Below, piece by piece: positions 7,496 through 24,802 of a stretch of 32,000 bases of DNA (position 1 is the first letter of the stretch; the number at the start of each line of letters is the position of its first letter). The notes beneath the pieces are model-generated. The model saw only the letters and a list, made by a program, of their open reading frames with translations. It was not told where the DNA came from and searched no databases. Source of the stretch: Candidatus Borrarchaeum yapensis. Lineage in GTDB: Archaea > Asgardarchaeota > Sifarchaeia > Borrarchaeales > Borrarchaeaceae. The stretch lies in contig JAEOSF010000001.1 in the NCBI GenBank assembly GCA_016840515.1, positions 50,447 to 82,446 on the forward strand, in the 5' to 3' direction. Made by a program: the position numbers and the translations under genes.

Positions 7496-8197
7496 ATGAA
7501 GGTAGCAGTTGTAGTTCCTGCGCATAACGAAGAAGAAAACATAGAAAAACTTGTAAACGATATAGATAATGTATTGCGTCAATTAAAGATTCAAAATCAA
7601 ATAGTAATCGTTGATGATAATAGTAACGATAATACGGCTACTATTCTTAAAGAATTATCAAAAAAGATGACAAATCTAACACCTGTTTATCGTTATGACG
7701 GAGTTTGTGGCGTAGGTTTAACATTGCGAGAGGGAATCAAGGCTGCGAAAAACAACGATGTTATTGTTACGATGGATGGGGACTTCTCGCACGATCCTAA
7801 AGAAATCCCTAAGCTCATTCAAGGCATTAAGAACGGAGCAGACTTGGTTATCGGATCTCGTTATATGAAGGGAGGGAGGGCAGACATGCCTCGATCCCGG
7901 ATTATCATAAGTGGCTTATATAATGTATTAAGCAAGCTCTTCTTGAGGACTTTTGTAAATGATTTAACGACGGGATTTCGGGCTATGAAACAGAAGGCAA
8001 TAGAAAAAGTAGAACTTAAATCTGAAGGATTTGAAATACATCCAGAAATTCATTTAAAAATTTACAAAGAGGGTTTTAAGGTTATAGAAGTTCCAATTCA
8101 TTATCATAGAAGAGGAGGAGGTACTTCTAAGTTACGATACTTTAAAGTTGGCCCAGGCTATCTTCGAGTAGTATTTAGGCAATTATTAGGCAAATAA
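7496..8197 (+). CDS. family-2 glycosyltransferase, dolichyl/polyprenyl-phosphate mannose (or glucose) synthase-like
   Basis: 'VVVPAHNEEENI', 'VDDNSND', 'MDGDFSHDP', 'GSRY', which are Dpm1-type GT-A motifs. 233 aa. Confidence 0.85.
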   Translation: MKVAVVVPAHNEEENIEKLVNDIDNVLRQLKIQNQIVIVDDNSNDNTATILKELSKKMTNLTPVYRYDGVCGVGLTLREGIKAAKNNDVIVTMDGDFSHDPKEIPKLIQGIKNGADLVIGSRYMKGGRADMPRSRIIISGLYNVLSKLFLRTFVNDLTTGFRAMKQKAIEKVELKSEGFEIHPEIHLKIYKEGFKVIEVPIHYHRRGGGTSKLRYFKVGPGYLRVVFRQLLGK

Positions 8198-8264: not shown

Positions 8265-9458
8265 TTATCCGCGGATGCGAACCACCTCAGGGTGCGCCAT
8301 CACCCAGTTATCCCTCTCCACCATGCGTGGACCTGGGAATATCGGATTTGAAAGATTAGCCACTCCATTGACATCAGCATTGAGAACTTTATTAGCTGTT
8401 TTGCATACATATAAACCACGGTGTTTTCGACCATTTCTATGTCTTTTACCGCAAAGACTACAGGTTTGAGAGGTCCAACTTTCGTCTATCGTTTTGACAA
8501 TCATCCCAAAATTCTCGGCTGTTATGTTTAACCGATCGACAATATAGCGAAAACTCCAGAAGTTATGGATCATTGCGTTGGTTTTTTTCCCCTTATCATT
8601 ATCCACTCGGATATGGGTTAAATCACCTACCGATATTTCAGAAACACCCTTCTCATAACAGTCCTTGACGAATCGATAGATCATAGTGTTGATGCCCTGT
8701 CGAAATCTCCGTTTCCTTGTCCGATATAACTTGTTTAGTTTTTTTGTGGGCCTAGGTTTCCCTCCTAATTTCCTTTGATAGTTAGCTATTTGTTTGTTCC
8801 AATACCACCAGTCACTCAACAACGACTTCCCAGAATAGAGTTTCGCACGAGTATCACCTTCAGTATAAGTGGTGAGGACATTGATCACTCCCAGATCGAT
8901 GTACGCCTTCTTGTTTCCTAATGGTTGATGTAGAGGTGTGCACTCTACTGGTTGATAGGCATACCATCCTTTCGAGAGCATATCAAAGTGAATTTCAAGA
9001 CGTCCTTGTTTTCCATGCCAGTTTAAGTTTCCATGGTAGGTAATCGCTAATTTATTGGGCAACAAAAGCCGTCTGGCTTCAAATTTATAACAATCTGTAC
9101 GTATGAGTGACCTTAAAATTCGCTTGCCTGTTTTTCGATCTTTCCAGTAGCCAGGAGGTCTAATGACCTTGATATGAGGAGACAACTTCCCCTGCTTCTT
9201 TTTTCTTAAAAGTGCAAAAAAGGATTTCCAAGCCTCATTATTCTTGCGGATGATCTGTTGCGTTGTTGCAGAACCGATCTGAGGTGAAAAGTCCTGATAT
9301 TCTTCAGTGGTATCCCAGTCTAGAGTTCCATCGAAGAAGGATTGTCGCCGCTTAAAGGTTATTTTATTCCATAAGACAGAAGATAACGTGCATAAGGCAA
9401 ATAGTTTTGCCTCTTGATCCTCATCAGGAACTAATTTAAGGATATTAGTTCTTCTCAA
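8265..9458 (-). CDS. tnpB: TnpB / IS605 OrfB-family RNA-guided endonuclease
   Basis: 397 aa. N-terminal 'ILKLVPDEDQ...', RuvC-I 'AYIDLGVINVLT', C-terminal 'WTSQTCSLCGKR...' Zn-ribbon and RuvC-III 'NADVNGVANL'. The second Cys pair of the ribbon looks degenerate ('YVCKTANK'). Confidence 0.9.
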   Translation of the reverse strand: MRRTNILKLVPDEDQEAKLFALCTLSSVLWNKITFKRRQSFFDGTLDWDTTEEYQDFSPQIGSATTQQIIRKNNEAWKSFFALLRKKKQGKLSPHIKVIRPPGYWKDRKTGKRILRSLIRTDCYKFEARRLLLPNKLAITYHGNLNWHGKQGRLEIHFDMLSKGWYAYQPVECTPLHQPLGNKKAYIDLGVINVLTTYTEGDTRAKLYSGKSLLSDWWYWNKQIANYQRKLGGKPRPTKKLNKLYRTRKRRFRQGINTMIYRFVKDCYEKGVSEISVGDLTHIRVDNDKGKKTNAMIHNFWSFRYIVDRLNITAENFGMIVKTIDESWTSQTCSLCGKRHRNGRKHRGLYVCKTANKVLNADVNGVANLSNPIFPGPRMVERDNWVMAHPEVVRIRG

Positions 9459-11300: not shown

Positions 11301-12545
11301 TTATTGTACCGCTTCTGCAAGAATTTCTGCAAACTTATAGACTTCTTCAAAAGTATTATATAGGGGATATGGCGCAACACGGATTATATCAGGCTCCCTC
11401 CAATCAACGGTTACCCCCCGATCTATCAACGTATCAAATAATTTCTTACCGTTTTTGAGAGTTCGAATTGAGAGTTGGCATCCTCGCTCATTAGCTTTTG
11501 AAGAGGTAATTATCTCGTAATTTTCAGGGCCTAATTCTTTTATCAAATACTCTAAATAGCCAGTCAATAACTCCCTTTTCTGATGAAAAAGAGATAGATC
11601 AAGCTCATCCCAAATGTTTAAAGCAGCTTTCAGACTTGCTAATAAAAGCACAGGATGTGTACTTATTTGCCAACCCGAAGCCCCAAGCGCTGGGTTAATG
11701 TCTGGCTCCATTAGGAACATCGTTTCACGTTTACCACCCCACCAGCCATCAAATCGAGGGAGATCTTTTTCAAAGTGGCGTTCATGTACGAAACATGCAC
11801 TTATTCCGCCAGGACCTGCATTGATGTACTTATAATTGCACCAAACGGCAAAATCTACATTCCAATCATGTAATTCAAGAGGGATATTTCCTACTGCATG
11901 TGCCAGATCGAAACCAACAACTGCCCCTTTTGCATGGGCTGCTTTAGTGATGGCTTCCATATCAAACGCTTGACCTGTAAGATAGTTAACTCCAGAAAAA
12001 AGGACTAAGGCGATAGATTCATTTATTGCATCAATAATGTCTTCTGTCCTGAGAATTGCTTCTCCGGGCCTAGCCTTAACTTCTATCAAAGAATCATTAA
12101 TTTCATGACCATGAAAACGGATTTGGGATTTAAGAGCATATTCATCACTAGGAAAAGTATGTTCTTCAATCAATATTCGATGTCTGTTTGTTGTTGTAGG
12201 ACAGAAAAAACTCACTAGAAGAAGATGAAGATTGACAGTCAAACTGTTCATGATTGAAACTTCTTCAGGCTGGGCACCTATAATACGTGCCATACTTTTA
12301 ACTAAATCATCTGAGTAAGAAAACCAGTTTTTAGACCCATGAAACCATCCTTCAACGCCTATCTCCTCCCATGTCTTAAGGATTTTGTCTATTTCAGTTC
12401 TTGCTGTTTTTGGTTGAAGACCTAATGAGTTGCCACAAAAATAGATTATGGAGTTGGGATAGTGGAACATTGTTCGAAATTTAGCTAATGGATCCGCCAA
12501 GTCCAGTTCTTTTGCAAACTCTAAACTTCGCTCAAATTCGATCAT
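11301..12545 (-). CDS. kynU: kynureninase (PLP-dependent)
   Basis: 414 aa. 'IYFCGNSLGLQPK', 'FDLAHAVGNIPLELHDWNVDFAVWCNYKYINAGPGG' (PLP-Lys in YKY), 'DWREPDIIRVAPYPLYNTFEEV'. These are collinear with bacterial and eukaryotic kynureninases. Confidence 0.9.
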   Translation of the reverse strand: MIEFERSLEFAKELDLADPLAKFRTMFHYPNSIIYFCGNSLGLQPKTARTEIDKILKTWEEIGVEGWFHGSKNWFSYSDDLVKSMARIIGAQPEEVSIMNSLTVNLHLLLVSFFCPTTTNRHRILIEEHTFPSDEYALKSQIRFHGHEINDSLIEVKARPGEAILRTEDIIDAINESIALVLFSGVNYLTGQAFDMEAITKAAHAKGAVVGFDLAHAVGNIPLELHDWNVDFAVWCNYKYINAGPGGISACFVHERHFEKDLPRFDGWWGGKRETMFLMEPDINPALGASGWQISTHPVLLLASLKAALNIWDELDLSLFHQKRELLTGYLEYLIKELGPENYEIITSSKANERGCQLSIRTLKNGKKLFDTLIDRGVTVDWREPDIIRVAPYPLYNTFEEVYKFAEILAEAVQ

Positions 12546-12589: not shown

Positions 12590-13477
12590 TTATTCATTTT
12601 TTAAAAGAAATCGAGGGAATTTCATCGCACTCTTAACTCTGTTTTCAAATATGCCAAGTTCTCTGACTCCAAAGCCCATTGAAAGCCCCAAAAGTTGCGG
12701 TAGATGAAGAACGGGGATGTCATAGTCGAGTTCCCAGAGTTCTTTAACCTTGATCTGATTTAAATCGAGGCTAAGAGAGCAGAACGGGCAGATAGTTATG
12801 AGCGCCTTAAGGGCTGCATCATGCGCAGTAGATATTATACGATGTGTCAGACGCCAAGCGACATCTGGGGCATTACTTAAGACGGGGGCTCCACAGCAGG
12901 ATATTTTTCCTTCATAATCTGATGCAATTGCTCCAGTAAGATTAATGATTTCATCCATATGCAGTGGTCGTTCAGGGTCTCCGTGATGTGTAATTTCAGA
13001 GGGGCGAAGCATGTGACAACCATAGTATGCTCCAACCTTAAGTCCGTCTTTAAATGGTATTTTAAGATGTTCCTTTATTCGTGGCAGTCCAACATCCTCA
13101 TAAAGAATTTTGAGAAAATGTTTAACTTCAAGTGTGCCATTATATTCTAGGTCAAAGTCTGATAGAATATTGTTAATATCTTCCCTTGCAGCATTATCTT
13201 TCTTTAAGTATTCATTTGCATGCATGATCGAACCTACGCAGCCGTTACATAAACAGCAAATATCTAAGTCCATTTTTTCAGCTGTAGCTAAAATTCTTGC
13301 CGACAACAATGTCCAATATTGTTCGTCCATTGAACGAACAATGGGTGAACCACAACATCCCGAATTAGGGAGATCAATCAGTTCTACACCTAGTTCCTTT
13401 GCAACTACACGGGAAGAGGCTTCATACCCGTTCATTTTTTCGGGAATAGTACAGCCTAGAAAAAGCGCATACTTCAC
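12590..13477 (-). CDS. hdrB: heterodisulfide reductase subunit B (two CCG domains)
   Basis: 295 aa. 'YALFLGCTIP', 'SGCCG', 'CCLCNGC', 'YYGCH', 'ISCCGAP', 'ICPFC'. The GTG start overlaps the hdrC stop by 1 nt. Confidence 0.9.
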   Translation of the reverse strand: MKYALFLGCTIPEKMNGYEASSRVVAKELGVELIDLPNSGCCGSPIVRSMDEQYWTLLSARILATAEKMDLDICCLCNGCVGSIMHANEYLKKDNAAREDINNILSDFDLEYNGTLEVKHFLKILYEDVGLPRIKEHLKIPFKDGLKVGAYYGCHMLRPSEITHHGDPERPLHMDEIINLTGAIASDYEGKISCCGAPVLSNAPDVAWRLTHRIISTAHDAALKALITICPFCSLSLDLNQIKVKELWELDYDIPVLHLPQLLGLSMGFGVRELGIFENRVKSAMKFPRFLLKNE

Positions 13478-14019
13478 TATTTTTCACCAGTTTCTTCTTC
13501 AGGGGGTTTATAATGGACTAATTTGGTGAATTTAATCTTTTCTGCTAGTTTTCGCATTATATCTGCGTCAGGAGTAGGCAATTCAGGGAGTTTGAAGCGA
13601 GTTTGACGTATTTTATTTTCATATTCACCCACTTCATTCATTAAGCCAAAAGTTAAGATGTTAGCCGCGATATCTGACCATACGCTAGGTATAATGTTTT
13701 CTTTCGCTGCCATGTTTCTAAGGTGAACGAAAATTTCTGGAGGTTTTACATCTTGAGGACAACGCTCCTCACATACATAACAGCCTGTACATAACCAAAT
13801 GAGCGGGTTGTGCAGTACTGCTTCTCTATCACCTAACATGATAAGCCGAATGATATTTCTCGGACTGAATTCTTCGCCACCGAACCGTGCTACAGGACAG
13901 CTACCCGTGCATGTCCCGCACTGGTAACAGGCAAAAAGGTCAAATGAAAGGTCCTCGATAAATTCCTCTGCGAGGCTCAAGTCTAGATCTGAAAGCTTCA
14001 CTACTTTTTCAGTTTCCAA
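13477..14019 (-). CDS. hdrC: heterodisulfide reductase subunit C (2x[4Fe-4S])
   Basis: 180 aa. 'CYQCGTCTGSCP' and 'CTGCYVCEERCP'. Confidence 0.9.
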   Translation of the reverse strand: METEKVVKLSDLDLSLAEEFIEDLSFDLFACYQCGTCTGSCPVARFGGEEFSPRNIIRLIMLGDREAVLHNPLIWLCTGCYVCEERCPQDVKPPEIFVHLRNMAAKENIIPSVWSDIAANILTFGLMNEVGEYENKIRQTRFKLPELPTPDADIMRKLAEKIKFTKLVHYKPPEEETGEK

Positions 14020-14022
14020 GTT

Positions 14023-14472
14023 CTATTCCTTCTTCGCTTCCTCTACTTCTTTCTTTACACGCTCAATTTCGGCCAGTTGCCATTGGACAAATTCGTTGGT
14101 GTCACCTTTCATAAGTTTTGAAAGGTCTGCCTCCAAATTAGATGGGCTAATCTTGACCATCCAACCTTCGCCGTATGGATCAGTATTGACAAGTGAGGCA
14201 TTATCCCACAACCCTTCATTGAATGCAGTAACTTCACCTGCGACTGGGGCATAAATTTTGCCTGTCCACTTGCCGCTTTCTAGTGTTCCAAAAGGTTTCA
14301 TAAACTCTACCGTCTCACCTTCAAAAGGCAATTGCACAGCCTGAATTTTTTCAGCCATGGTTTGCGCAAAATCGGTCACGCCAACCACAACAATATCTCC
14401 TTCTACTCTTGCCCAAGAATGTTCAGTTGTATAATATAATTCATCTGGGAGATCATAATCTTCAATTTTCAT
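14023..14472 (-). CDS. gcvH: glycine-cleavage H-protein-like lipoyl carrier
   Basis: 149 aa. 'YTTEHSWARVEGD...VGVTDFAQ' and 'LESGKWTGKIYAPVAGEV' (the lipoyl-Lys position is conserved). SD 'aaggag' lies upstream. Confidence 0.88.
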   Translation of the reverse strand: MKIEDYDLPDELYYTTEHSWARVEGDIVVVGVTDFAQTMAEKIQAVQLPFEGETVEFMKPFGTLESGKWTGKIYAPVAGEVTAFNEGLWDNASLVNTDPYGEGWMVKISPSNLEADLSKLMKGDTNEFVQWQLAEIERVKKEVEEAKKE

Positions 14473-14532
14473 TTTTACATTCTCCTTTTCAATTTATGAA
14501 ATTGTTTTTTTTCAAAGGTTATATATAAGAAG

Positions 14533-14549
14533 CATCCCTGCGTAGGGAG
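14533..14549 (-). other. second small hairpin in the hdrA-gcvH spacer (minus RNA: CUCCCU-ACGC-AGGGAUG)
   Basis: 5-bp G/C-rich stem (UCCCU/AGGGA) with a 4-nt loop, directly 3' of the SECIS candidate. Function unknown. Confidence 0.3.
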
Positions 14550-14558
14550 CCAGTCCTT

Positions 14559-14587
14559 CTCTCAGTCCCTAAAGGGTTTCCCGAGAG
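14559..14587 (-). promoter_or_regulatory. candidate archaeal-type SECIS element in the hdrA-mvhD 3' region
   Basis: Minus-strand RNA is 5'-CUCUCGG-GAAA-CCC-UUUA-GGG-A-CUGAGAG-3'. It has a 7-bp lower helix, an asymmetric internal loop with GAA(A) on the 5' side and A on the 3' side, three G-C pairs and a 4-nt loop. It starts 4 nt after the final stop of the Sec gene. Confidence 0.7.
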
Positions 14588-14590
14588 AGA

Positions 14591-17500
14591 TCATTCCATT
14601 TCAGTTCGAGATATACGCGACGGATTGGGTCCAAGTTTCGAAATACTTTCGCCAAAGGTTTGCATTGCTTCTCTAAATTTTTCTGCTTCCGCGGATGAAA
14701 GGAAGTACATTACAGTTCTGCCTTCACCAAAACCCATAGTTTCAAGAAGTTTTTCAGCCAACTCAACAGACTTTTCTGCTTGTAAGTTTCCATCAATATA
14801 TGCACAGTCGCCTTTGTGTCATCCGACTACGGCGACACCGTCTGCGCCGAGTGAAAACGCATTAAGCAACCATGGAGTATCAATACGACCTGTACACGGC
14901 ACCCGTATAATTCGAGTTCGATAGTCATATTGAAGTTTTGAAAGCCCAGCTAAGTCTGCAGCACCATACCCACATTTTTCACAAGCAAAAACAAGAAGTA
15001 ATGATTTTTGCTTGCTTTCAGCTAAAAGTGATTCAATTTGTGGATAGAATTGCTCATCTCGCCAGTATCGAAGTTCTCTAGCTCCAGAGGGACATGCTGC
15101 AACGCATGTGCCGCAGCCCTTGCATTCAATTTCATCAGTAACCGAAACAAGTCCTCCTGCTTCAGTTTCTTTCGTAGTTATAGCATCGTATGGACAGGCG
15201 ATTACGCACACCTTACATCCGCTACAAAGATTCTCGTCACATACAGCCTTGATTAGTTCAAGTTGAATCTCTTTTTGTTGTAACAGTACGCCTGCTGCTG
15301 ATGCCGCTGCTTTACCTAGTACTATTGAGTCGCTTATGCTTCGTGGAGAAAGAACAGACCCTGCTACGTAAACGCCATCTTTTCGTGTTTCGACAGGTTT
15401 GAATTTTATGTGGATAGGCTCAAGAAAACCATCAGAAGAGCGAGTAACTCCTGTTATCTTACACAGTTCATCAAAGCCTTCAGGAGGTTCTTGCCCTACC
15501 GCTAGGACTACATAATCTGTGTCTATCTCGAATGTAGTTCGTGAAAGGGTATCGTATACTTGCACCATAGCATTTTCATTGTAGATTGCCGTAACCATCG
15601 GGGGTCTTTCTTCTGTCCATCGCATAAAATTGGAGCGATATTGTTTTCTTGTAGTTAGATAGAACTCTTCCATATACCTTCCGACAGGTCGCAAATCCTC
15701 CTTAAAGAGGACAAAGGTTTGACAGTTCGGAAAGAGTTCTTTCACGGTCTGCGCATTTTTCAGTGAGGCACCGCAACAAACACGAGAGCAGTATTTGTTT
15801 CCATCTTCTTCTCGTGAGCCAACGCACTGAATGAAGACAACACGTTTTGGTTCTTGATCAAAACTGCGCGTTTTAAGCAATTCCTCGAATTCAAGAGAAG
15901 TTACCACTCGTGGAACAGTATTGTAACCGTATTCGCCGTCCTTGGGAGAATATGTATTTGTTCCGACAGCTATAATTATAGCGCCAACGTTAATATCAGT
16001 GTTTTCTCCATTAATTCTCCTAATTTGTGTTGTAAAATCACCGATGTGACCATCAAGGGATTCCAATGAAGACTCAAGGTAAACCGAGATATTGGGAGCA
16101 TTAGATATCTGCGCTGTTAATTCATCCAAAATTTGGCTGGCTTCAGTTTTTTCTGGAAACACTTTGTAGAGAGAATTGAGACGACCACCAAGTTGAGAAT
16201 CTTTTTCCACGAGGTGAACATTGAATCCTTGATTAGATAAATCAAGGGCAGCCGACATTCCAGCAATTCCACCACCAATAATAAGAGCTTCATTGACAAC
16301 TGAAACCGTCCGATATGGCACAATCTCAAGATGTAATGCTCGTGCAATGCCAGCCCTGATCAAGTCCTTTACTTTTTCTGTGGCTTCTTTTTTTGTCTGC
16401 ATATGAACTTGCGCTGCCTGATCTCTTATGTTCACGTATTCAAGATAATACTTACTTACTCCAGCAGACTCTAAAAGAGTCCTAAATGTTTCTTCGTGAA
16501 GTAAAGGTGAACATGCTGCTACTAAAACCCGATTAATATTGAGTTCCTTTATCATCTCGCTGATTTGCTGTTGTCCTGGCTCACTACAGAAGAACTCATT
16601 GTTATCTACATAGATCACGCCAGGTAATGTCTTTGTATATTCCATGACTTCTGGTACGTCAATGTAATTTGCGATATTGCCACCGCAGTGGCATACAAAC
16701 ACGCCAAGTCGAGACTCATCGGTAACTTCTTCCTTTGTTTGAGGCGCATATGATGTTATGTGTGGTGGAGAACCAGATAAAAGGTTCACTGCAGACGATG
16801 CAGCAGCTCTTGCTTGAGTAACCGTATCCACAGCATCTTTTGAGCCTGTTGCCACTCCCGCGATAAAGATTCCATGTCGATTTGTTTCGATTGGATGATA
16901 ACTGTTGGTTTCAAGAGGAAATCCATCACCGCTAATTTTAATGCTTAATTTTTGGCATAGTTCATGTGTCCCTTCAGATGGAACAAATGAACTAGATAAG
17001 ACAACAAGGTCGATATTTTTGACCTGAGAAACTTCTCCAGTATTAGTATCTTCAACCCAGACAATCAAGTCTTTTGTTTCTTCGTTTTCTTGAATTTCCG
17101 CCACTTTACCGCGAATTAAATTAGGATTATAGCTATTCTGTGTGTCCCTGTAGTATTCTTCGTAAAGTTTTCCTGAGGATCTTATATCTATATAGCAAAT
17201 GTCTGCCTGTCCTTTTCCTTTTGATTGCAGTTTATAGGCTCTAGCTTGTTTTAATGCGAACATACAGCAGACTCGGTTACAGAATTTGTTGCCGACTTCC
17301 TTTTCACTTCTAGAGCCCACACATTGGACCCATAATACCCTGCTTGGTTCTTTCCCATCAGAAGGTCTCACTATCTTGCCATTAGTAGGACCTGTGGGAT
17401 GCATCATTCGTTCAAACTGAAGTGATGTAACAACGTTTTCGTAGTATCCATAGCCAAATTGTTTCAATGGTGTTGGGTCGAATTCATCAAAACCCGTGGC

Positions 17501-18076
17501 TACAATTATCGAGCCAACATTGATTTCGATGATCTCTTCGGCATCAACAAAGTTTATTGCTTCCGCAGGACACTCCATCTCACACATTCCACAATCTATG
17601 CACTGCTCCTTATCTAATCTAGGGATCTGGGGGACTGCCTGAGGAAAAGGAAGATAAATTGCTTTTCGTACACCTATACCCATATCGTATTCTGAAGTCA
17701 CTTCAACTGGACATACTTCAAGGCATTTTTGACATCCTGTACATTTGTCTGAATCGACATATCTAGGGCTTTGCTTGAGTTTTACCGTAAAGCTTCCTGA
17801 TTCACCATTTACCTCTAAAACTTCGGTTAGAGTAAACAAGCGAACATTGTCGTTTCTGGCAACGCTTGACATAAGTGGTGTAAGTGGTCAAGCCGAGCAC
17901 TCATCGGTCGGAAAGATTTTGTAAACCTGTGAAAATCGTCCTCCAATTGTTTCTCGTTTCTCTACTAGAAACGCCGTATAGCCTTGATTTGCAATATCTA
18001 GCGAAGCATACATGCCAGCCATTCCGCCGCCAATCACCAAGACACTTTCTGCCGCTTTACTTTCCAATGCATTCAT
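14591..18076 (-). CDS. hdrA: heterodisulfide reductase subunit A (tandem HdrA modules) fused to an MvhD domain. Selenoprotein with two in-frame UGA (Sec) codons at 17888-17890 and 14819-14821
   Basis: Three collinear in-frame pieces: 18076-17891 'VLVIGGGMAGM...FPTDECSA', TGA, 'PLTPL' plus the 1017-aa ORF, TGA, then 75 more codons 'HKGDCAYIDGN...FLSSAEAEKFREAMQTFGESISKLGPNPSRISRTEME' to TGA 14591-14593. Both TGAs replace Cys of conserved motifs (FPTxDCSxC and GCHxGDCxY). AGGAGGT SD precedes ATG 18076. There are several ferredoxin-type CxxCxxCxxxCP motifs and two GxGxxG FAD motifs. Confidence 0.85.
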
Positions 18077-18260: not shown

Positions 18261-19448
18261 TTAGCGATAACTGTCAACTACACCTGCTGAATAGGCAACA
18301 AGTCTTGGCAATTCTAAAACGCGAATGCGTTCTCTGTAAGCCCTCATTCCAATTGAATGATGACACGTAGGGCAAGTCGTGAGAATATATTGTACACCTA
18401 ACTTAGCTGCGTCTTTGACAATTTCATCACTTAGATCGTTTCTTAGTTCAGTGTATGGTACACGGATCGGTCCACCGCAACATCTCGCGTCTCCTTTTGT
18501 TTCTGGTAACTCAACGAACTCAATACCTGGAATACTTTCTATGATCTTCCGAGGAGGGTCGTATTTAAGTGCGTATCTCCCGAGATGGCATGGATCCTTG
18601 AAGGTAACCTTTCCCTCAAGGGGTTTCGTCATTTTTATTTTACCATCATCGATTAAACGTTCAAGCACTTCCGAAATATGATATGCTTTTGGAGTATCCG
18701 GAGAGATTGCTTTATACTCCTCATTGAAGACTGAAGCGCACATCGGACATGCTGTGATTATAGTCTCAATCCCTCGCGATTTAAAGAGTTCGATGTTTTT
18801 CTTAGCAGCTTTCTCAAAATATGGTTTGAATCCTAACCAACTAAGAAATCCTCCGCAACAACTCTCTGAATCGAACATCGTAAACTCTTCTCCAGCGGCT
18901 TTCAAGAGTTTAACTCCCGCACGTGAATTATCGGGATAATCAATAGTCCCTACACAACCAGCGTAATAGAGCGTTGAAGATTCCTTTGGTAAGGTTGCTT
19001 TTATTTCGCCAAAAACCTCGTTGAACACGACAGGATAATCCATTCCATGGGTATTTCCTTTCTCAAGAATGCTGTCAGCAATACCCCTATGCTCTGAAAG
19101 CGTATAATTGTTGTCGGCTAGATATTCACGCACGCGATCCATAACGTCTACCACTTTTATTTTTGCTGGACAGTGTTCCTCACACTTTTTGCACAATGTG
19201 CATGTGTAAAGAATTTCCATTGCATAATCATCAACGGGAAATCCTCCTTCAATGAGAGCTCGCTCTAGCATGATCCTTCCTCGACAGTTGTAACTTTCCA
19301 TCTGTGTAGCATCAAAAATCGGACATGCAAACCTACAAAATCCGCATCGTACGCATCTGTATGTTTCTGTTTCAGCATCAGCGTCAATCCTCATTTTCTT
19401 ATGTTTTGGTTTAAGCATTGTACCCGAAACTACATCTTCTTGTGTCAT
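18261..19448 (-). CDS. glcF: GlcF/HdrD-like Fe-S oxidoreductase (2x[4Fe-4S] plus two CCG domains)
   Basis: 395 aa. 'CVRCGFCRFACP', 'CTLCKKCEEHCP', 'YYAGC', 'SCCGG', 'ACPMC', 'DPCH', 'ARCCGG', 'TCPTC'. The start is 2 nt after the upstream gene's stop. Confidence 0.85.
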   Translation of the reverse strand: MTQEDVVSGTMLKPKHKKMRIDADAETETYRCVRCGFCRFACPIFDATQMESYNCRGRIMLERALIEGGFPVDDYAMEILYTCTLCKKCEEHCPAKIKVVDVMDRVREYLADNNYTLSEHRGIADSILEKGNTHGMDYPVVFNEVFGEIKATLPKESSTLYYAGCVGTIDYPDNSRAGVKLLKAAGEEFTMFDSESCCGGFLSWLGFKPYFEKAAKKNIELFKSRGIETIITACPMCASVFNEEYKAISPDTPKAYHISEVLERLIDDGKIKMTKPLEGKVTFKDPCHLGRYALKYDPPRKIIESIPGIEFVELPETKGDARCCGGPIRVPYTELRNDLSDEIVKDAAKLGVQYILTTCPTCHHSIGMRAYRERIRVLELPRLVAYSAGVVDSYR

Positions 19449-19450
19449 CT

Positions 19451-20869
19451 CTAGTCATCCTCCAAGATGTTAATTCTTTGGCCTGGAATTGGTAATACGT
19501 GACCAGGGCAGAAAATATTTTTAGGATCAAATGCATTCTTGATCTTTTTCTTTAATTCTAACACTTTAGGTTGGTGTTCAACGGGCATCATCATAAGTTT
19601 GGAAACACCAATTCCATGTTCCCCAGTGACCGTCCCTTCTAATTCAACTGCTGCATGCCACAAGTCAACTAATGTTTGTAGGGCGCGCCTATGTTCATCA
19701 GGATCTCGTTCATCCCACAAAAGTATAGGATGAAGATTTCCATCTCCTGCGTGACCGAATGTGGCAATTTCGATCCCATTCTTTTCGCTTACTCTATCAA
19801 TCTCTTGGAACATCGTCGGTAGGTTTTTTAGAGGTACTGATACGTCTTCCATTCGTGCAGTTGGCCGTCGAAGTGTTAGTGCTGGAAATGCAGCCTTTCT
19901 AGCTGCCCAGACTTGTGTACATGTTTCCAGATCTCGTGCTGTTTCGGATTTGATTGCTCCCATCTCTTTGAACAAATCTTCCAGTTTATCTAGCCGCATC
20001 TCAACGTCATCTCTATTCCCATCTAATTCCACAAGGACAACAGCTCCGCATTCGGGGAATTTTAAGGTTCCTGAATATTCTTCTACTGCCTTAAGTGTCT
20101 TGTAATCAAGAATTTCTGTTCCTGAGGGGTCAAATCCTCTTTTAATGATTTCTCTGACGCACTTTCCTGCTTCAAAAGCGGAATTGAAATAGCCACTAGC
20201 CACGAGACGGACTGCTGGCAAAGGTTGAATTTTGAGCATTGCCTTGGTAATAATACCCAGAGTCCCTTCTGATCCTACAAAAAGTGAAACAAGATCGTAG
20301 CCACAAACAAATTTAATTGCTTTATTGCCGATATTAACGACACTCCCATCTGATAGGACGATTTCCAAGCCCATAACCCACTCTTCGGTGACTCCATATT
20401 TAAGTGCACGAATTCCGCCGCTATTATTATTTACCATACCGCCAATTGTAGCTGTTTTGTCCGATGCTGGATCCGGCGGAAAGTAAAATCCATAGGGCTC
20501 TAAGTAGGTATTGAGGTCTAGACACACCATACCAGGCTCAACGGTTATTAGAAAGTTCTCAACATCGAGATCTACAACCTTGTTCATCCTTGCGACCACC
20601 AAAATCAAACAATCAGGCTTTGCAGGGATGACACCCCCGCTAACGTTGCTTCCAGCCCCTCTTGGAATAATTGAGAATCCTTCTTCATTAGCTAGCTTCA
20701 CGATATCTGCGACCTCTTCTGTGGTATTAGCAAAGGCCACGGCTGCTGGCATACCTGTATCAATGCTAGCATCGCGTGAGTAAATATACAGATCGATTGC
20801 ATGATTTAAAACATTGTTTTCTCCAACTATTTTTTTCAGGGCGGGAATGATTGTGCCCTGCCAATCCAA
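19451..20869 (-). CDS. glcD: FAD-linked 2-hydroxyacid oxidase/dehydrogenase (GlcD / D-lactate dehydrogenase family)
   Basis: 472 aa. FAD_binding_4-type N-terminal half ('IIPRGAGSNVSGG', 'TVEPGMV...L') and C-terminal 'FGHAGDGNLHP', 'GTVTGEHGIG', 'DPKNIFCPG'. Confidence 0.88.
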   Translation of the reverse strand: MDWQGTIIPALKKIVGENNVLNHAIDLYIYSRDASIDTGMPAAVAFANTTEEVADIVKLANEEGFSIIPRGAGSNVSGGVIPAKPDCLILVVARMNKVVDLDVENFLITVEPGMVCLDLNTYLEPYGFYFPPDPASDKTATIGGMVNNNSGGIRALKYGVTEEWVMGLEIVLSDGSVVNIGNKAIKFVCGYDLVSLFVGSEGTLGIITKAMLKIQPLPAVRLVASGYFNSAFEAGKCVREIIKRGFDPSGTEILDYKTLKAVEEYSGTLKFPECGAVVLVELDGNRDDVEMRLDKLEDLFKEMGAIKSETARDLETCTQVWAARKAAFPALTLRRPTARMEDVSVPLKNLPTMFQEIDRVSEKNGIEIATFGHAGDGNLHPILLWDERDPDEHRRALQTLVDLWHAAVELEGTVTGEHGIGVSKLMMMPVEHQPKVLELKKKIKNAFDPKNIFCPGHVLPIPGQRINILEDD

Positions 20870-21118: not shown

Positions 21119-22108
21119 TTGAGTGGAAAACCTAAAGTTTTTGTTTCTCGTATAATCCCAAAGCCAGCTTTAGATATGATCAATGTGGAGTGTAAGATGG
21201 AATTTAATGAAAGTGATATCCCTCTTACACAGGCTGAGTTTATTGAAAAAATGAAAACACTTGACGGGCTTGTTTGCCTACTTACTGACGACATTAATGC
21301 CGAAATCCTAAAATCCGTTAAAGAAGCAAACCCTAATTTTAAAGTAGTCAGCAATGTAGCAGTAGGTTACAACAACATCGACTGGAAGGCAGCCACAGAA
21401 TTAGGTATCGCAGTATCCAATACCCCAGGAGTTCTAGATGACACAACTGCAGATTTTACCTGGGCACTTCTCATGGCAGTTGCTCGACGCGTTGTCGAGG
21501 CAGATAAGTATTTCCGCCAAAAAACGTGGAAAGGATGGGGTATAATGCAGTTTCTTGGTTCTGATGTCTACGGGAAAACACTGGGAGTCGTTGGACTAGG
21601 AAGAATTGGACGAGTGGTAGCTAAAAGGGCTAAGAGTTTTGACATGAAAGTTCTTTATACAGATGTTGTCCGGTTCGAGGATCTGGAAAAAGAATTAGGA
21701 CTCCAATATGTGGATAAAGAGACAATTCTTAAAGAATCAGACTATGTAACTTTGCATGTTCCCTTGATTCCAGAAACTAAACACTATATTGGTGTAAAAG
21801 AACTAGAAATGATGAAAGAAACCGCGTATTTGATTAATGCATCACGAGGTCCCGTTGTAGATGAAAAAGCGCTCGTTAAAGCATTACAGGAGAAAAAGAT
21901 TGCTGGTGCTGGTTTGGATGTCTTTGAAATGGAGCCTAAAGCTGAACCAGAACTTTATGAAATGGATAACGTTGTGTTAGCACCACATATCGCAAGTGCA
22001 TCAATAGAGACTCGTACTAAAATGGCGACCATGGCTGCTGAAAATGTCATTGCTGGCGTTAAGGGACTCAAACCACCAAATTGTGTTAATCCAGAAATTT
22101 ATGGATAA
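21119..22108 (+). CDS. gyaR: glyoxylate/hydroxypyruvate reductase (D-isomer-specific 2-hydroxyacid dehydrogenase)
   Basis: 329 aa. 'KPKVFVSRIIP' N-terminus as in archaeal GyaR, 'GKTLGVVGLGRIGRVVAKRA' NAD motif, 'LINASRGPVVDEKAL', 'AGAGLDVFEMEP', 'PHIASAS'. TTG start. Confidence 0.85.
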   Translation: MSGKPKVFVSRIIPKPALDMINVECKMEFNESDIPLTQAEFIEKMKTLDGLVCLLTDDINAEILKSVKEANPNFKVVSNVAVGYNNIDWKAATELGIAVSNTPGVLDDTTADFTWALLMAVARRVVEADKYFRQKTWKGWGIMQFLGSDVYGKTLGVVGLGRIGRVVAKRAKSFDMKVLYTDVVRFEDLEKELGLQYVDKETILKESDYVTLHVPLIPETKHYIGVKELEMMKETAYLINASRGPVVDEKALVKALQEKKIAGAGLDVFEMEPKAEPELYEMDNVVLAPHIASASIETRTKMATMAAENVIAGVKGLKPPNCVNPEIYG

Positions 22109-22144
22109 CCCTCTAAAAAAATAAACAAAATAGGAGAGAAGATT

Positions 22145-23857
22145 ATGCCTAAAATGCAAGTAGCGGAAGTTATAGTAAAAATTCTTGAAGATGAAGGAGT
22201 AACAGCAATGTTTGGTATACCGGGCGCAGCAATAAATCCCGTCTACAAATACCTTGGGCAAACAACAAAAATTAAGCACTATATTGCTCGACATGAAGAA
22301 GGAGCATGCCATGCAGCTGACGGATATGCACGAGCAACTGGAAAAGTTGGCGTCTGTATCTGTACAAGCGGACCTGCAGCGACAAATTTTGTAACAGGTC
22401 TCTATACTGCTCAAGTTGACTCTATCCCAATTGTCGCAATTACTGGGACAGCAACGAGAGCAGTATTGGGTCAAGAGGCGTTTCAAGCGGTTGACATAGC
22501 AGAAATAGTTAAACCAGTGACTAAGAAAAGTTATTGTGTTAGGGAGCCTTATCGCCTCCCAGGTACTATGAGGGAAGCTTTTCGAATCGCTAGAGAAGGA
22601 AGACCCGGACCAGTGCTTATTGATCTCCCCGTTGACCTCCAGAGAACAGAAATTGAATATGATCCAGAAACAGATCGTAGTTTAGACTTTTCGACACCCA
22701 AAGCAAATGAAAAACAAATCAAGAAAGCAATTGATATGATCTTGGAAGCTAAGAATCCAATCATCTTAGCCGGAGGAGGAGTCATTATTTCGGGCGCTTC
22801 CAAAGAACTCCAAGAATTAGCAGAATATTTAAGTTTACCCATCTGTGCTAGTTACATGGGAAAGAGTGCTCTTGACACTAATCATCCATTATACGCGGGA
22901 CTAGTCGGTACCATCATGCAAACAAGACTTGGCAACAAATTATTCTTAGAGAGCGATCTTGTTCTAGCGGTTGGTGCCAGATTTGTTGACCGTCATACGG
23001 GTAAACTAGATGTTTACACGAAAGACAGAAAATTCATCCACATTGACATTGATCCTCTACAAATTGGCAAGATCGTCCCCACAGAGTTAGGAATTGTATC
23101 AGATGCCAAAGTAGCACTACAAATGATGATCGATCAAGCCAAAGCTCGAAATGCAAAAGTAATGCCAAATGAATGGGTATCGTCTATACCTGCCCGACGT
23201 AAAGAGCTTGCGAGAAGATTAGACTTTGATAATGTGCCAATCAAACCTCAAAGACTTTTCAAAGAAATAAATGAATTCTTTGATGATGACACAATTTTTG
23301 TGACGTCAGTCGGACTTAATCAGATTTGGAGCGGTCAATATCAAGAAATAAAGAAACCAGGACATTACAAGGTCTGTGGATGCGCGGGAACGTTGGGTTG
23401 GGATTTACCAGCTTCGATTGGGGCTAAAGTCGGATACGAGGAAATGGGAATGCCTGAAAAGAAGGTCGTAGGCATCACAGGAGATGGCGGATTAGGATTC
23501 ATGGTAGAAGAATTAGCGATGGCGGCCCACTATCAAACTCCAATAGTTATGCTGGTGCTTAACAATGGCTTCTTGAGCTTGATTAGACAAAACCAGAGCA
23601 TCGTTTATGACTATGAATATGCGGTAGATCTTACATACGATACAAATAAGCTTGAAAAACATGGAATAGGAATAGATTTCGTTAAGCTTGCAGAAGCTTT
23701 TGGACTATACGCTGAACGAGTCGAAAAACCTGAAGATCTAAAGGCTGCTTTCCAGAGAGGCCTAGATAACGCCCCAGCGGTATTAGATATTATATGTGAA
23801 CGTGAAACTAATTGTAGTATGGGGTTAGCTCTGGACGCTATAGCTGAAAGAGGATAA
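22145..23857 (+). CDS. gcl: glyoxylate carboligase (tartronate-semialdehyde synthase), ThDP enzyme
   Basis: 570 aa. The N-terminus 'MPKMQVAEVIVKILEDEGVTAMFGIPGAAINPVY' matches the Gcl-specific 'GVPGAAINPFY' rather than the acetolactate synthase form. Also 'GRPGPVLIDLPVD' and the ThDP motif 'GDGGLGFM...LNNG'. SD 'taggagag' lies upstream. Confidence 0.8.
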   Translation: MPKMQVAEVIVKILEDEGVTAMFGIPGAAINPVYKYLGQTTKIKHYIARHEEGACHAADGYARATGKVGVCICTSGPAATNFVTGLYTAQVDSIPIVAITGTATRAVLGQEAFQAVDIAEIVKPVTKKSYCVREPYRLPGTMREAFRIAREGRPGPVLIDLPVDLQRTEIEYDPETDRSLDFSTPKANEKQIKKAIDMILEAKNPIILAGGGVIISGASKELQELAEYLSLPICASYMGKSALDTNHPLYAGLVGTIMQTRLGNKLFLESDLVLAVGARFVDRHTGKLDVYTKDRKFIHIDIDPLQIGKIVPTELGIVSDAKVALQMMIDQAKARNAKVMPNEWVSSIPARRKELARRLDFDNVPIKPQRLFKEINEFFDDDTIFVTSVGLNQIWSGQYQEIKKPGHYKVCGCAGTLGWDLPASIGAKVGYEEMGMPEKKVVGITGDGGLGFMVEELAMAAHYQTPIVMLVLNNGFLSLIRQNQSIVYDYEYAVDLTYDTNKLEKHGIGIDFVKLAEAFGLYAERVEKPEDLKAAFQRGLDNAPAVLDIICERETNCSMGLALDAIAERG

Positions 23858-23887
23858 GTTAGAAAACCAATAAAAGGCGGTGAAAAA

Positions 23888-24802
23888 ATGAAGAAACACT
23901 GGGATCTTTATATGAAAATCGGTATAGTACATGGAATGGTGTTTCCAGAATGCCTTGCGGGAGAAGGTCCAATACTCGAAACGCTTACTAAGATAGCAGA
24001 AGATGGATTCTTCTCAGCAATTGACTATGGTGGATGCAAAGATCCAGCAATCAAAGGTGATGTAGCAGCACTCTTAAAAGCATCTCGCTTAACCGTCAAC
24101 TTCTCAGCACAACCAGCTCTATTGCTCCCGAAACTTAATTTGAACGCATTAGACGAAGAATTACGAAATCGATCTATACAGGCAATAAAATCATGTATTG
24201 ACGAAGCCTACGAAGTTGGTGCAGAATATTTAACCGTTCTAAGTGGTCCTTATCCAGGTGATGCAGATAGTGAAAAGGGAATGACATTGTTAATCGATTC
24301 CTTAAATCAACTTTGTGAATACGCGAAAAGTAAAGGAAATCTCGCATTAGCTTTAGAGGTCTTTGACCGTGAGATTGATAAAAAATCTTTGATAGGGCCA
24401 TCTGAATCAGCAGTAGAGGTTGCTAAGGCAGTACGTGAGGCAGGATATCCTACTTTTGGCTTAATGCATGATTTAAGTCATCTTCCATTGCTAAATGAAA
24501 CACCTGCCCATGCGTTGTCGACTACGAAGAAGTATTTAACACTTGTGCACTTGGGGAATTGCGTCAAAGACCCAAACAATCCTTTATATGGAGATCAACA
24601 TCCGATCTTCGGTATAGAAGGAGGAGAAAATGACGCAAAAGAGTTGGCAGAATACCTGAATGCTCTTTTTGAAATTGATTACTTAGAAAAAGGTAAACGC
24701 CCATTTGTTAGTTTCGAAGTAAAACCTCATAAAGGTATTACATCAGAGATGGCCATAGCAAATGTAAAACGTACATTAAAAGAGGCTTGGACACAAGTTT
24801 AA
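23888..24802 (+). CDS. xylose-isomerase-like TIM-barrel protein (hydroxypyruvate isomerase-like / sugar-phosphate isomerase-epimerase)
   Basis: 304 aa. It occupies the position taken by hyi after gcl in bacteria. 'LALEVFDRE' and 'GLMHDLSH...LVHLGN' resemble metal-ligand strands of the AP_endonuc_2 fold. The specific activity cannot be assigned. Confidence 0.6.
   Translation: MKKHWDLYMKIGIVHGMVFPECLAGEGPILETLTKIAEDGFFSAIDYGGCKDPAIKGDVAALLKASRLTVNFSAQPALLLPKLNLNALDEELRNRSIQAIKSCIDEAYEVGAEYLTVLSGPYPGDADSEKGMTLLIDSLNQLCEYAKSKGNLALALEVFDREIDKKSLIGPSESAVEVAKAVREAGYPTFGLMHDLSHLPLLNETPAHALSTTKKYLTLVHLGNCVKDPNNPLYGDQHPIFGIEGGENDAKELAEYLNALFEIDYLEKGKRPFVSFEVKPHKGITSEMAIANVKRTLKEAWTQV

Follow-up and report, generated by a model that had tools for sequence, protein, structure and literature searches.

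One mRNA read from positions 18076..14591 (minus strand) of the window, the whole 32-kb stretch of DNA analysed, very probably encodes a single 1161-residue selenoprotein, in which UGA codons 63 and 1086 are both read as selenocysteine (Sec) via one 3′ SECIS and a HdrA pseudo-heterodimer is joined to MvhD. Translation of the window revealed one HdrA-HdrA-MvhD frame of 1,161 sense or TGA codons plus a stop, with exactly two internal stops, both TGA (TGA1, codon 63; TGA2, codon 1086), and a further TGA as its terminal stop. In the ORF list, this frame appears as a 62-aa ORF (17888..18076) and a 1017-aa ORF (14819..17872), both on the minus strand; five sense codons (PLTPL) lie between TGA1 and the ATG of the latter, and 75 codons follow TGA2. 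A first-pass annotation had given these ORF sizes and coordinates, both TGA positions and both codon counts, all of which were reproduced by translating 14591-18076, and the read-through peptides that it quoted match the translation exactly. A homologue search returned Cys-type homologues of 1140-1200 aa that span 97-100% of the fusion without interruption. The gene comprises the following features:

14591..18076, minus strand: HdrA-HdrA-MvhD coding sequence (translation; Pfam FlpD/MvhD at 1028-1149, two FAD modules, Fer4 motifs)
16727..18052, minus strand: module 1, aa 9-450, with thioredoxin-reductase-like FAD domain, inserted 2x[4Fe-4S] ferredoxin and predicted Sec63 (aligns to 5odc_A 143-562)
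17888..17890, minus strand: UGA codon 63, predicted selenocysteine, equivalent of Cys197/Sec197 of methanogen HdrA
16325..16720, minus strand: HdrA ‘N-terminal' [4Fe-4S] domain, aa 453-584, between the FAD modules (aligns to 5odc_A 2-133 and 9sfi_A 3-133)
15047..16324, minus strand: module 2, aa 585-1010, second FAD domain plus C-terminal ferredoxin (aligns to 9sfi_A 135-234 and 316-650)
14630..14995, minus strand: MvhD/VhuD/FlpD [2Fe-2S] domain, aa 1028-1149, across UGA2 (PF02662 positions 2-123 of 123, E=1.8e-43)
14819..14821, minus strand: UGA codon 1086, predicted selenocysteine, replacing the first Cys of the MvhD motif G-C-H-x-G-D-C

Both internal TGAs fall on invariant cysteine columns, as the first-pass annotation had proposed in placing the two U residues at the last Cys of the HdrA segment and at the first Cys of GCHxGDC. 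TGA1 is aligned opposite Cys197 of the 5ODC HdrA (5odc_A) and opposite Sec (‘X') in 9SFI_A, and its column holds Cys in 116 of 116 homologues; an in-frame UGA at this canonical Cys197/Sec197 site is the mark of a selenoprotein HdrA. In the Methanococcus maripaludis Hdr-Vhu structure 9SFI, HdrA residue 197 and VhuD residues are modelled as selenocysteine. TGA2 is aligned opposite the second Sec (X) of the VhuD chain 9SFI_K and, residue by residue, matches the first Cys of GCHxGDC in the MvhD chains 9SW2_D and 7BKB_F, with Cys in all 41 homologues possessing the domain; the fusion thus combines a full PF02662 domain with UGA at a Cys column that is Sec in VhuD, as expected of a Sec-MvhD/VhuD/FrhD. 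The methanococcal and Loki VhuD pattern of two Sec ∼50 codons apart was not found, UGA occupying the second position alone, while the first VhuD Sec position is Cys in the fusion (FACEKCGYG versus CyqXgyg in 9sfi_K).

The two TGAs are present in L001-L003, which are independent assemblies of the same sequence, and in six diverged complete orthologues (L004/L007, L006, L008, L009, L015 and L024), which excludes a sequencing artefact. Two further orthologues, L011 and L023, cover TGA2 alone and both retain it, and every complete orthologue, down to 69% protein identity, retains both TGAs. TGA1 is constant among orthologues although adjacent codons vary synonymously; synonymous sites are saturated, and TGA is nonetheless invariant, the internal stops being always TGA and never TAA or TAG. 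Purifying selection acts on all three segments: dN/dS is 0.11 before TGA1 (versus L004; not computable versus L008/L009), 0.10-0.14 between the TGAs and 0.10-0.19 after TGA2, and the first 62 codons, with 84-94% amino-acid identity, are conserved no less than the remainder. Relatives with genuine stops and separately initiated genes, which the first-pass annotation had named as evidence that would count against its reading, were not found; the TGAs are in frame throughout. Direct observations are the reading frame, the alignments, the retention of the TGAs and the selective constraint, along with the SECIS motif described below as to its presence, its position and its conservation.

It is exceedingly improbable, given these data, that the TGAs are genuine stops in a split or decaying gene that yields separate 62-aa, 1017-aa and ∼56-aa products or is not expressed at all. 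Gene callers do give exactly these fragments, and an ATG lies five codons past TGA1; yet module 1 cannot do without its GxGxxG motif for FAD binding, which lies in the 62-aa piece, the 75-codon tail supplies the latter half of the MvhD domain, and the three pieces share one frame with dN/dS of 0.10-0.19 across lineages. The exclusive use of TGA, and the saturation of synonymous sites, likewise speak against termination, as does the would-be start of the 1017-aa ORF, Met69, a residue conserved in HdrA as the Met of C-I-L-A-P-K-M.

The double-selenocysteine reading calls for a SECIS, and a candidate was found at the extreme 3′ end of the frame, where four elements lie:

14554..14594, minus strand: SECIS-like element (AUGA 14594-14591; 5′ arm 14590-14581; 3′ arm 14565-14556; GA 14555-14554)
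14591..14593, minus strand: terminal UGA stop, also the UGA of the SECIS core AUGA (L006/L008 comparison)
14532..14550, minus strand: second conserved hairpin, directly 3′ of the SECIS (GCUCCC / GGG(A)UGC), paired in 6/6 lineages and never varying
14519..14528, minus strand: conserved TATA-box-like motif TTATATATAA upstream of gcvH

The element carries AUGA 5′ and GA 3′ of a ∼9-bp stem near the end of the coding sequence, as do eSECIS-like elements of Asgard archaea. Its stem is of 9-10 bp (8/9 pairs in the window, 9/9 in L009), and its apical loop, GAAACCCUUUAGGGA at 14580-14566, folds with a CCC/GGG ministem. The descriptor has one match in 64 kb (the window, both strands), against 0.063 expected, and that match is at the stop codon; the element is near-invariant in six lineages. 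In L006 and L008 the frame stops at a UAA 9 nt upstream, leaving AUGA inside the 3′ UTR, thus UGA 14591-14593 is the true stop and not a third Sec. The 11-nt apical loop with A-rich first five bases of the Lokiarchaeota type I was not found; instead, the loop is of 15-17 nt, starts with G-GAAA and holds a 3-bp ministem, in line with both the ‘type II' form and the ‘G[U/G]AAA' variant of Sifarchaeia/Borrarchaeales (PMC11227280). As for the TATA-box-like motif, TTATATATAA could, judged from its sequence, be an internal promoter of gcvH.

Across the six sequences, 96% of cells in the SECIS stem are paired, versus 36-60% in slid controls, the sequences being so alike that no compensatory pair occurs among them. 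By folding energy alone the element would not be singled out (z=−0.68), and an Rfam scan at the gathering threshold and another of 14440-14660 at a permissive E-value returned no match to a SECIS family; evidently, Rfam is without a model that captures Asgard SECIS. A metagenome-wide loop scan (pattern ATGA-N9-GKAAACCC-N3-4-GGGAC-N9-GA) gave 15 matches, among which four have at least 8/9 stem pairs and are all orthologues of the fusion locus, while the other 11, with 3-6 pairs, are chance matches. This collection-wide scan therefore gained orthologues and no independent gene family, the exact loop being found in no other selenoprotein family. Bacterial-type SECIS hairpins within ∼50 nt 3′ of each UGA were also considered and rejected, since shuffles are equally stable (z=−0.92 and −0.80).

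Under the double-selenocysteine reading, this one Asgard-type (eukaryote-like, kink-turn-type) SECIS would direct Sec insertion at both UGAs, acting over ∼0.23 kb to UGA2 and ∼3.3 kb to UGA1. The latter distance is greater than the span of ∼2 kb considered for Lokiarchaeota (PMC4989117) and than the 2.45 kb measured in L026, a published locus of Candidatus Borrarchaeum weybense with a Sec-hdrA/frhD pair, and might favour recoding of one TGA alone, for example with Sec at UGA2 and either termination at UGA1 or re-initiation at Met69 to give an N-terminally truncated protein. Such single recoding is very unlikely: the first 62 codons are conserved like the rest (84-94% identity; dN/dS 0.11 versus L004), TGA1 sits on the invariant Cys197 column, and loss of residues 1-68 would leave module 1 without its FAD-binding fold. 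Moreover, in the canonical hdrA of this lineage, UGAs at 2.45 kb from the shared SECIS are taken to be Sec codons (PMC11227280).

Whether the lineage uses Sec at all bears on a further alternative, in which UGA is read as Cys, Trp or Gly by near-cognate or suppressor decoding or by lineage-wide reassignment. Neither a Sec machinery gene nor tRNA-Sec was found in the 32-kb window, and Borrarchaeaceae are known to recode another stop, UAG, to Pyl (PMC9723677), both of which would sit well with non-Sec read-through. However, three further ORFs of the window end at TGA as an ordinary stop and none of its remaining genes has TGA in frame, which rules out genome-wide UGA reassignment; both sites are Cys/Sec-exchange positions that are Sec in methanogens; the locus has a SECIS-like element of the lineage's own kind; and tRNA-Sec is reported for the closest relative, as are Sec biosynthesis genes for the class to which that relative belongs. 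We thus regard non-Sec decoding as extremely unlikely.

As Sec machinery was not seen within the window, Sec use by the source organism is inferred from B. weybense, the nearest relative with a name, which stands at congeneric level (91% identity, same synteny). For B. weybense, tRNA-Sec has been shown in the metagenome-assembled genome and Sec biosynthesis genes are reported for its class (PMC9723677); Sec-containing forms of SelD, HdrA, FrhD, FrhA and Prx-like proteins are given for it in the PMC11227280 supplement. The first-pass annotation had cited Lokiarchaeota as precedent; the lineage is Sifarchaeia/Borrarchaeales rather than Lokiarchaeota. Its overall reading of a double-selenocysteine HdrA is supported, each check that could be run having proved favourable.

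The two HdrA modules are not equivalent. Matches to 9SFI_A/5ODC_A show the homology to HdrA: module 1 taken with the N-terminal domain gives E=2e-168, and module 2 taken with the C-terminal ferredoxin gives E=1.5e-99. Module 1 is without a HdrA N-terminal domain of its own; module 2 skips 9sfi_A 235-315, so that the inserted ferredoxin is absent, and has no Cys197 equivalent (FPEKTEASQ), Cys being found at this motif in no homologue. For the ‘tandem HdrA modules' of the first-pass annotation, alignment to 5odc_A and 9sfi_A reveals two complementary partial HdrAs and not two complete ones. With U63 in module 1 and the N-terminal domain before module 2, the protein conforms to a self-heterodimeric fused HdrA (Chadwick 2022).

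With this arrangement, the fusion is a self-complementary, intramolecular pseudo-heterodimer of HdrA joined to MvhD. Module 1 contributes an FAD domain, the inserted ferredoxin and, as predicted Sec63, the sole Cys197 equivalent; the module 2 part contributes the HdrA N-terminal [4Fe-4S] domain, the second FAD, the C-terminal ferredoxin and the MvhD [2Fe-2S] domain with predicted Sec1086. By analogy with methanogen HdrA, Sec63 would be either a ligand of the cluster in the partner module's N-terminal domain or part of a Cys-Sec redox relay beside it.

Five neighbouring genes on the same strand as the fusion point to its context:

19451-20869, minus strand: GlcD-like FAD oxidase, upstream
18261-19448, minus strand: HdrD/GlcF-like Fe-S protein with two CCG domains, upstream
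14023-14472, minus strand: GcvH, downstream
13477-14019, minus strand: HdrC, downstream
12590-13477, minus strand: HdrB, downstream

Synteny of the upstream genes is retained in L004, L006 and L008. The fusion, HdrB, HdrC and the neighbouring proteins of GlcD-like and HdrD-like type probably make up a flavin-based electron-bifurcating or -confurcating complex in a non-methanogenic archaeon of the Borrarchaeales (Sifarchaeia), in which the roles of cofactors and the substrates are putative. A bolder proposal, which we consider rather unlikely, is that the stop-overlapping eukaryote-like SECIS acts 3.3 kb upstream, the longest archaeal reach so far seen, and that the product is the Sec-dependent core of a previously undescribed Borrarchaeales bifurcating complex, where lipoyl-GcvH, as the ‘heterodisulfide' of a non-methanogen, would be acted on by a GlcD/HdrD-like 2-hydroxyacid (glycolate/D-lactate) dehydrogenase together with HdrBC. 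In the relative L028, an IS insertion may lengthen the reach to 4.3 kb.

As the first-pass annotation had predicted, standard gene callers output 62 aa plus 1017 aa and sometimes a 56-60 aa FlpD fragment; as every gene caller breaks the gene into two or three pieces, a central enzyme of electron bifurcation is overlooked or misinterpreted when Borrarchaeales metabolism is reconstructed. The Asgard selenoproteome gains a fused double-module HdrA-MvhD, and the distance that one Asgard SECIS would have to cover rises from ∼2.5 kb to ∼3.3 kb. Selenocysteine as the sole Cys197 equivalent of a self-heterodimeric HdrA also bears on the debate between cluster ligand and Cys-Sec electron relay (PMC13518236). 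On none of these points, whether of annotation, selenoproteins or Hdr enzymology, are existing views overturned.

Among known systems, the nearest are the Asgard (Lokiarchaeia/Sifarchaeia) selenoprotein pairs of HdrA and VhuD/FrhD/MvhD that share one 3′ eSECIS-like ‘lokiSECIS' (Mariotti 2016, PMC4989117; Huang 2024, PMC11227280). L026 served as the concrete comparator; as the contig of L025 (P0121) ends before frhD and the SECIS, the cluster members P0254 and P0252 were used instead. In L026 and the fusion the protein families are the same, Sec (predicted in the fusion) occupies the canonical site of HdrA and a site of VhuD, each transcript has more than one UGA, and a single SECIS with AUGA...GA follows the MvhD part, its loop starting with G(G/U)AAA; in L026 (GUAAA loop), as in the fusion, the AUGA overlaps the UGA stop. 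Unlike the pairs, the fusion has hdrA and mvhD in one continuous frame, a HdrA that is a double module of complementary halves, predicted Sec at one of the two VhuD Sec positions with Cys at the first, and a SECIS with an apical ministem and a longer loop (11 nt in lokiSECIS); its farthest UGA lies ∼3.3 kb from the SECIS, versus 2.45 kb in L026. Peptide strings of the fusion are absent from those sequence files of the PMC11227280 supplement that were compared, and the gene may already be catalogued in Tables S3/S4.

The methanogen Hdr-Vhu enzyme has counterparts of U63 (Sec197/Cys197) and U1086 (the second VhuD Sec), and its domains (FAD, ferredoxin, N-terminal and MvhD) can each be recognised in the fusion; however, that enzyme is a homodimer of a four-domain HdrA with a separate VhuD subunit and an archaeal-type SECIS, whereas the organism here is a non-methanogenic Asgard archaeon. 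Fused or tandem ‘heterodimeric' HdrAs are known from ANME (HdrA3/4) and from the Moorella MetFV-HdrABC-MvhD complex (Chadwick 2022, PMC9012536). As in these, Cys197 and the N-terminal FeS domain are split complementarily over two fused modules, so that the polypeptide would be its own dimer partner, yet in the fusion the order is reversed, with the Cys197-type module first and the N-terminal-domain module second, and the Cys197 equivalent is a predicted selenocysteine. HdrA-MvhD fusions, for example Methanosarcina HdrA2, likewise have MvhD at the C terminus.

Cys-type double-HdrAs of Thor-, Loki- and Helarchaeia are of ∼1020-1035 aa and without a fused MvhD; that the Asgard homologues of 1015-1035 aa are Sec forms truncated at both TGAs was considered and rejected, as they are Cys forms without fused MvhD. 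Both the double-HdrAs and the Cys-type fused forms of 1140-1200 aa (P0063, P0021, P0060 and P0114 being examples from these groups) share with the fusion the module order and the cysteine inventory, at 39-48% identity, but have Cys at both UGA positions and are without the GlcD/HdrD-like/GcvH context; in L031, MvhD is a separate downstream gene. Set against these systems, the fusion is a real addition, and an expected one, to a class of selenoproteins that is already on record for Asgard archaea.

A single 1161-codon hdrA-hdrA-mvhD gene hidden behind two in-frame TGA codons and encoding a double-selenocysteine protein had been proposed in the first-pass annotation, and its layout (two ORFs, in-frame TGAs and a 75-codon tail) was reproduced exactly by the ORF list and translation:

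17888..18076, minus strand, ORF of 62 aa with TGA as stop
14819..17872, minus strand, ORF of 1017 aa with TGA as stop

The two ORFs share an identical frame with a gap of five sense codons, and 75 more open codons follow the second TGA up to a TGA at 14591-14593. The read-through frame (18076..14591) comprises 1161 codons with two internal stops, both TGA (codons 63 and 1086; TGA1 and TGA2). Assembly error as the source of the TGAs was ruled out, as the arrangement recurs in three assemblies of this sequence that are independent of each other (L001-L003) and, moreover, in diverged relatives. The corrected gene model is the practical value of the finding.

Alignment to solved structures placed TGA1, without gaps, on Cys197 of M. 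thermolithotrophicus HdrA (5ODC_A) and on the 'X' of M. maripaludis HdrA (9SFI_A), which was modelled as Sec197 (PMC13518236). TGA2 fell on the second 'X' of VhuD (9SFI_K) and on the first Cys of G-C-H-x-G-D-C in the MvhD chains 9SW2_D and 7BKB_F, shown residue by residue. Among the sequences covering each column in an alignment of 118 homologues, Cys was found in 116 of 116 at TGA1 and 41 of 41 at TGA2; both proposed U positions thus lie on invariant Cys columns. Rather than carrying genuine stops there, close relatives kept both TGAs in frame: Ca. Borrarchaeum weybense (L004/L007, 91% identity), Borrarchaeota Yap75.bin3.45 (L008, 70%), MAG DZ3M.366 (L009, 69%) and the metagenome contigs L006, L015 and L024, with TGA2 also kept in L011 and L023, which cover TGA2 only. 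The codons neighbouring each TGA change synonymously among orthologues while the TGA itself is constant. Furthermore, dN/dS (Nei-Gojobori, each segment apart) was 0.11 before TGA1 (62 codons; against L004, the L008 and L009 values being not computable as synonymous sites are saturated), 0.10-0.14 between the TGAs and 0.10-0.19 after TGA2 (72-75 codons); therefore all three segments are translated in this frame. General reassignment of UGA was excluded, since TGA stops three other window ORFs and no further in-frame TGA needing read-through was found among the other window genes. The double-selenocysteine reading of the HdrA-HdrA-MvhD protein is therefore supported.

Folding revealed no stable hairpin just after either UGA, so a bacterial-type SECIS is not present. 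A SECIS-like element was located directly at the gene end, followed by two further features:

14594-14554, minus strand, SECIS-like element, GGA-AUGA-UCUCUCUCGG-GAAACCCUUUAGGGA-CUGAGAGAAG-GA
14550-14532, minus strand, second hairpin, directly 3′ of the SECIS
14528-14519, minus strand, TATA-like box TTATATATAA

The terminal stop of the fusion is the UGA within the AUGA of this element. Its form agrees with the Lokiarchaeota/Asgard SECIS, defined as AUGA, a 9-bp stem, an A-rich loop start and GA after the stem, at the coding-sequence end and sometimes overlapping the stop (PMC4989117). However, its loop is longer and has a 3-bp ministem, which corresponds to the 'type II' form, and its loop start is the 'G[U/G]AAA' variant reported for hdrA/frhD of Sifarchaeia/Borrarchaeales (PMC11227280; PMC13188914). 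A descriptor that asks for AUGA, a 9-nt arm pairing at 8 or more positions, a 9-19-nt loop with AAA close to its beginning, and a final GA matched once in the whole window, both strands included, at the fusion end, as compared with 0.063 matches expected from shuffles, a statistic that is partly post hoc as the loop-length range was widened after the element was seen. Each related locus had exactly one match, at the orthologous place. On the weaker side, a collection-wide scan for the SECIS loop recovered orthologues of the fusion locus only, no Rfam family matches the element, its folding energy is unremarkable, and no compensatory changes were found in its stem among the lineages compared, which are too alike.

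The 80-nt block holding the SECIS, the second hairpin and the TATA-like box is ~90% identical among lineages with saturated synonymous sites, the latter two features being almost invariant; these could serve gcvH-hdrCB as terminator and promoter, or belong to the Sec signal. In L006 and L008 a UAA 9 nt farther upstream closes the coding sequence, which leaves the AUGA element intact and entirely within the 3′ UTR. Thus, the element is conserved for its own sake, and the last UGA of the window gene is a true stop. A comparable element was found in the canonical hdrA-frhD pair of B. weybense (L026), whose translation matches the Sec-HdrA and Sec-FrhD sequences published for GCA_019057385:

JAHQJS010000004.1, L026:6448-6485, SECIS with AUGA that includes the frhD UGA stop

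There, frhD ends with ...ACU-GA-AUGA-CUCUUGAAAC-GUAAACAUUGUG-GUUUCAAGAA-GA; the layout (stop codon inside AUGA, 9-10-bp stem) is common to both elements, with GUAAA as the L026 loop start. As the L026 AUGA also contains the stop, the stop/SECIS overlap seems to recur in Borrarchaeum.

Genes for archaeal RNase P proteins, ribosomal protein L15e and an Arf/Ras-like GTPase are present in the window, which is syntenic with B. weybense contig JAHQJS010000006.1; no tRNA or Sec-pathway gene was found within its 32 kb. For B. weybense, tRNA-Sec was shown in MAG lw60_2018_gm2_56 and archaeal/eukaryotic Sec biosynthesis genes were reported at class level (Sun et al., PMC9723677), and its Sec proteins comprise SelD, FrhA, two HdrA, two FrhD, two Prx-like proteins and an AhpF-N homologue (Huang et al., PMC11227280). 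Peptide strings of the fusion were absent from those sequence files of the latter study that were searched; its tables could still list the gene. The Arf/Ras-like ORF (6607-7329, plus strand) is overlapped almost wholly by a minus-strand ORF (6429-7157; 242 aa, ending in TGA, no Pfam match) that is probably spurious.

A Pfam search of the protein with Cys put in at both TGAs yielded a complete MvhD/FlpD domain across TGA2 (PF02662, positions 2-123 of 123, E=1.8e-43), two FAD/NAD(P) Rossmann modules and several 4Fe-4S motifs. The order of parts was resolved by alignment to solved structures:

aa 9-450, thioredoxin-reductase-like HdrA FAD domain with inserted ferredoxin domain (5ODC_A 143-562)
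aa 453-584, HdrA 'N-terminal' [4Fe-4S] domain (5ODC_A 2-133)
aa 585-1010, second FAD domain without inserted ferredoxin, plus C-terminal ferredoxin domain (9SFI_A 135-234 and 316-650)
aa 1028-1149, MvhD

The tandem HdrA plus MvhD fusion first proposed stood as to the single frame and MvhD; the HdrA modules themselves proved to be partial ones. FPTDECSA-U of the first module corresponds to FPEKTEASQ in the second, where no homologue in the alignment has Cys, and the two are therefore complementary halves. The Cys197-type residue lies in the first, as does the inserted ferredoxin; the second has the N-terminal cluster domain together with the C-terminal ferredoxin and MvhD. The same Cys197/N-terminal-domain complementarity in fused or tandem HdrAs of ANME archaea and Moorella was taken to make the polypeptide its own heterodimeric partner (Chadwick et al., PMC9012536), yet the module order is reversed here. 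Uninterrupted Cys-type homologues sharing the whole architecture (1140-1200 aa, 97-100% coverage) occur in Lokiarchaeota, 'Promethearchaeota', Hodarchaeales, Geothermarchaeales and others, so the read-through product has direct precedents.

The same-strand flanking genes encode a GlcD-like FAD oxidase, an HdrD/GlcF-like CCG protein, GcvH (with the lipoyl-lysine motif), HdrC and HdrB:

18261-20869, minus strand, GlcD-like and HdrD/GlcF-like genes, upstream of the fusion
12590-14472, minus strand, GcvH, HdrC and HdrB, with GcvH between the fusion and hdrCB
21119-26392, plus strand, divergent glyoxylate-reductase-like, glyoxylate-carboligase-like (725 bits, slightly below the 791 cutoff), TIM-barrel isomerase-like and class-V aminotransferase genes

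These flanks, together with the glyoxylate-type divergent genes, tentatively suggest a complex that would bifurcate or confurcate electrons and be coupled to the oxidation of a 2-hydroxyacid (glycolate or D-lactate). They hint at a glycolate/glyoxylate-linked Hdr complex, with lipoyl-GcvH perhaps as its disulfide substrate. The GlcD/HdrD/GcvH-type context was not found at the Thor (L030) and Loki (L031) double-HdrA loci. Directly after hdrB, an ORF (11301-12545, minus strand) matches kynureninase (TIGR01814) at 441 bits, with the cutoff at 246, unexpected for an anaerobic Asgard archaeon and at the same position in L001-L004. A TnpB gene (OrfB_IS605 plus Cas12f-like TNB; 8265-9458, minus strand) sits between glycosyltransferase and methyltransferase genes that adjoin in B. 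weybense (L004), and is thus a lineage-specific insertion.

A single transcript would span at least 18076 to about 14550, on which one 3′ SECIS would recruit EFSec-Sec-tRNA(Sec) for the decoding of two UGAs, UGA1086 at 0.23 kb and UGA63 at 3.3 kb upstream of it. The terminal UGA, which lies inside the core of the SECIS, would act as stop; a stop too near the SECIS was argued to terminate in Lokiarchaeota genes (PMC4989117). Sec63 would substitute for Cys197, which in the methanogen enzyme binds the N-terminal-domain cluster of the partner protomer as a fourth ligand (PMC9012536); a 2026 cryo-EM structure has a Cys-Sec bridge there, proposed as an electron relay between FAD and that cluster (PMC13518236). 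Sec1086 would fall in the Cys motif that is conserved in the [2Fe-2S] domain of MvhD; what exactly it does there is inferred.

At a Borrarchaeum-like contig (ENA ERZ27256783 k141_1248594; L028:3995-8351), a same-strand TnpB/OrfB_IS605 gene (6184-7812) splits hdrA from frhD:

L028, 4001-4546 and 4562-5911, canonical Sec-hdrA ORFs
L028, 7988-8351, frhD and SECIS

Provided that this hdrA has kept its expression, the shared SECIS is as far as about 4.3 kb from its UGAs, on the other side of a mobile element, and the insertion would test the range of the SECIS in nature. A Lokiarchaeota locus (RDOG01000001.1; L031:2505-13175) holds a run of hdrA-like genes: one for an 1168-aa HdrA-HdrA-MvhD fusion, one for a 1021-aa double HdrA with MvhD (136 aa) as a gene of its own behind it, and one more for a 696-aa HdrA-MvhD. 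The HdrA-HdrA-MvhD architecture is extensively paralogous inside one operon.

In Lokiarchaeota and further Asgard classes, Sifarchaeia among them, multi-Sec HdrA and VhuD/FrhD genes with one eukaryote-like SECIS in common are well documented (PMC4989117, PMC9723677, PMC11227280), and fused double HdrAs as well as HdrA-MvhD fusions are already known (PMC9012536). Particular to the window fusion are the combination of multi-Sec, a shared SECIS, a double HdrA and an MvhD fusion in one reading frame, selenocysteine as the only Cys197-equivalent of a self-heterodimeric HdrA, and the distance over which the SECIS must reach, at about 3.3 kb as compared with 2.45 kb in L026 and 'about 2 kb' in Lokiarchaeota.
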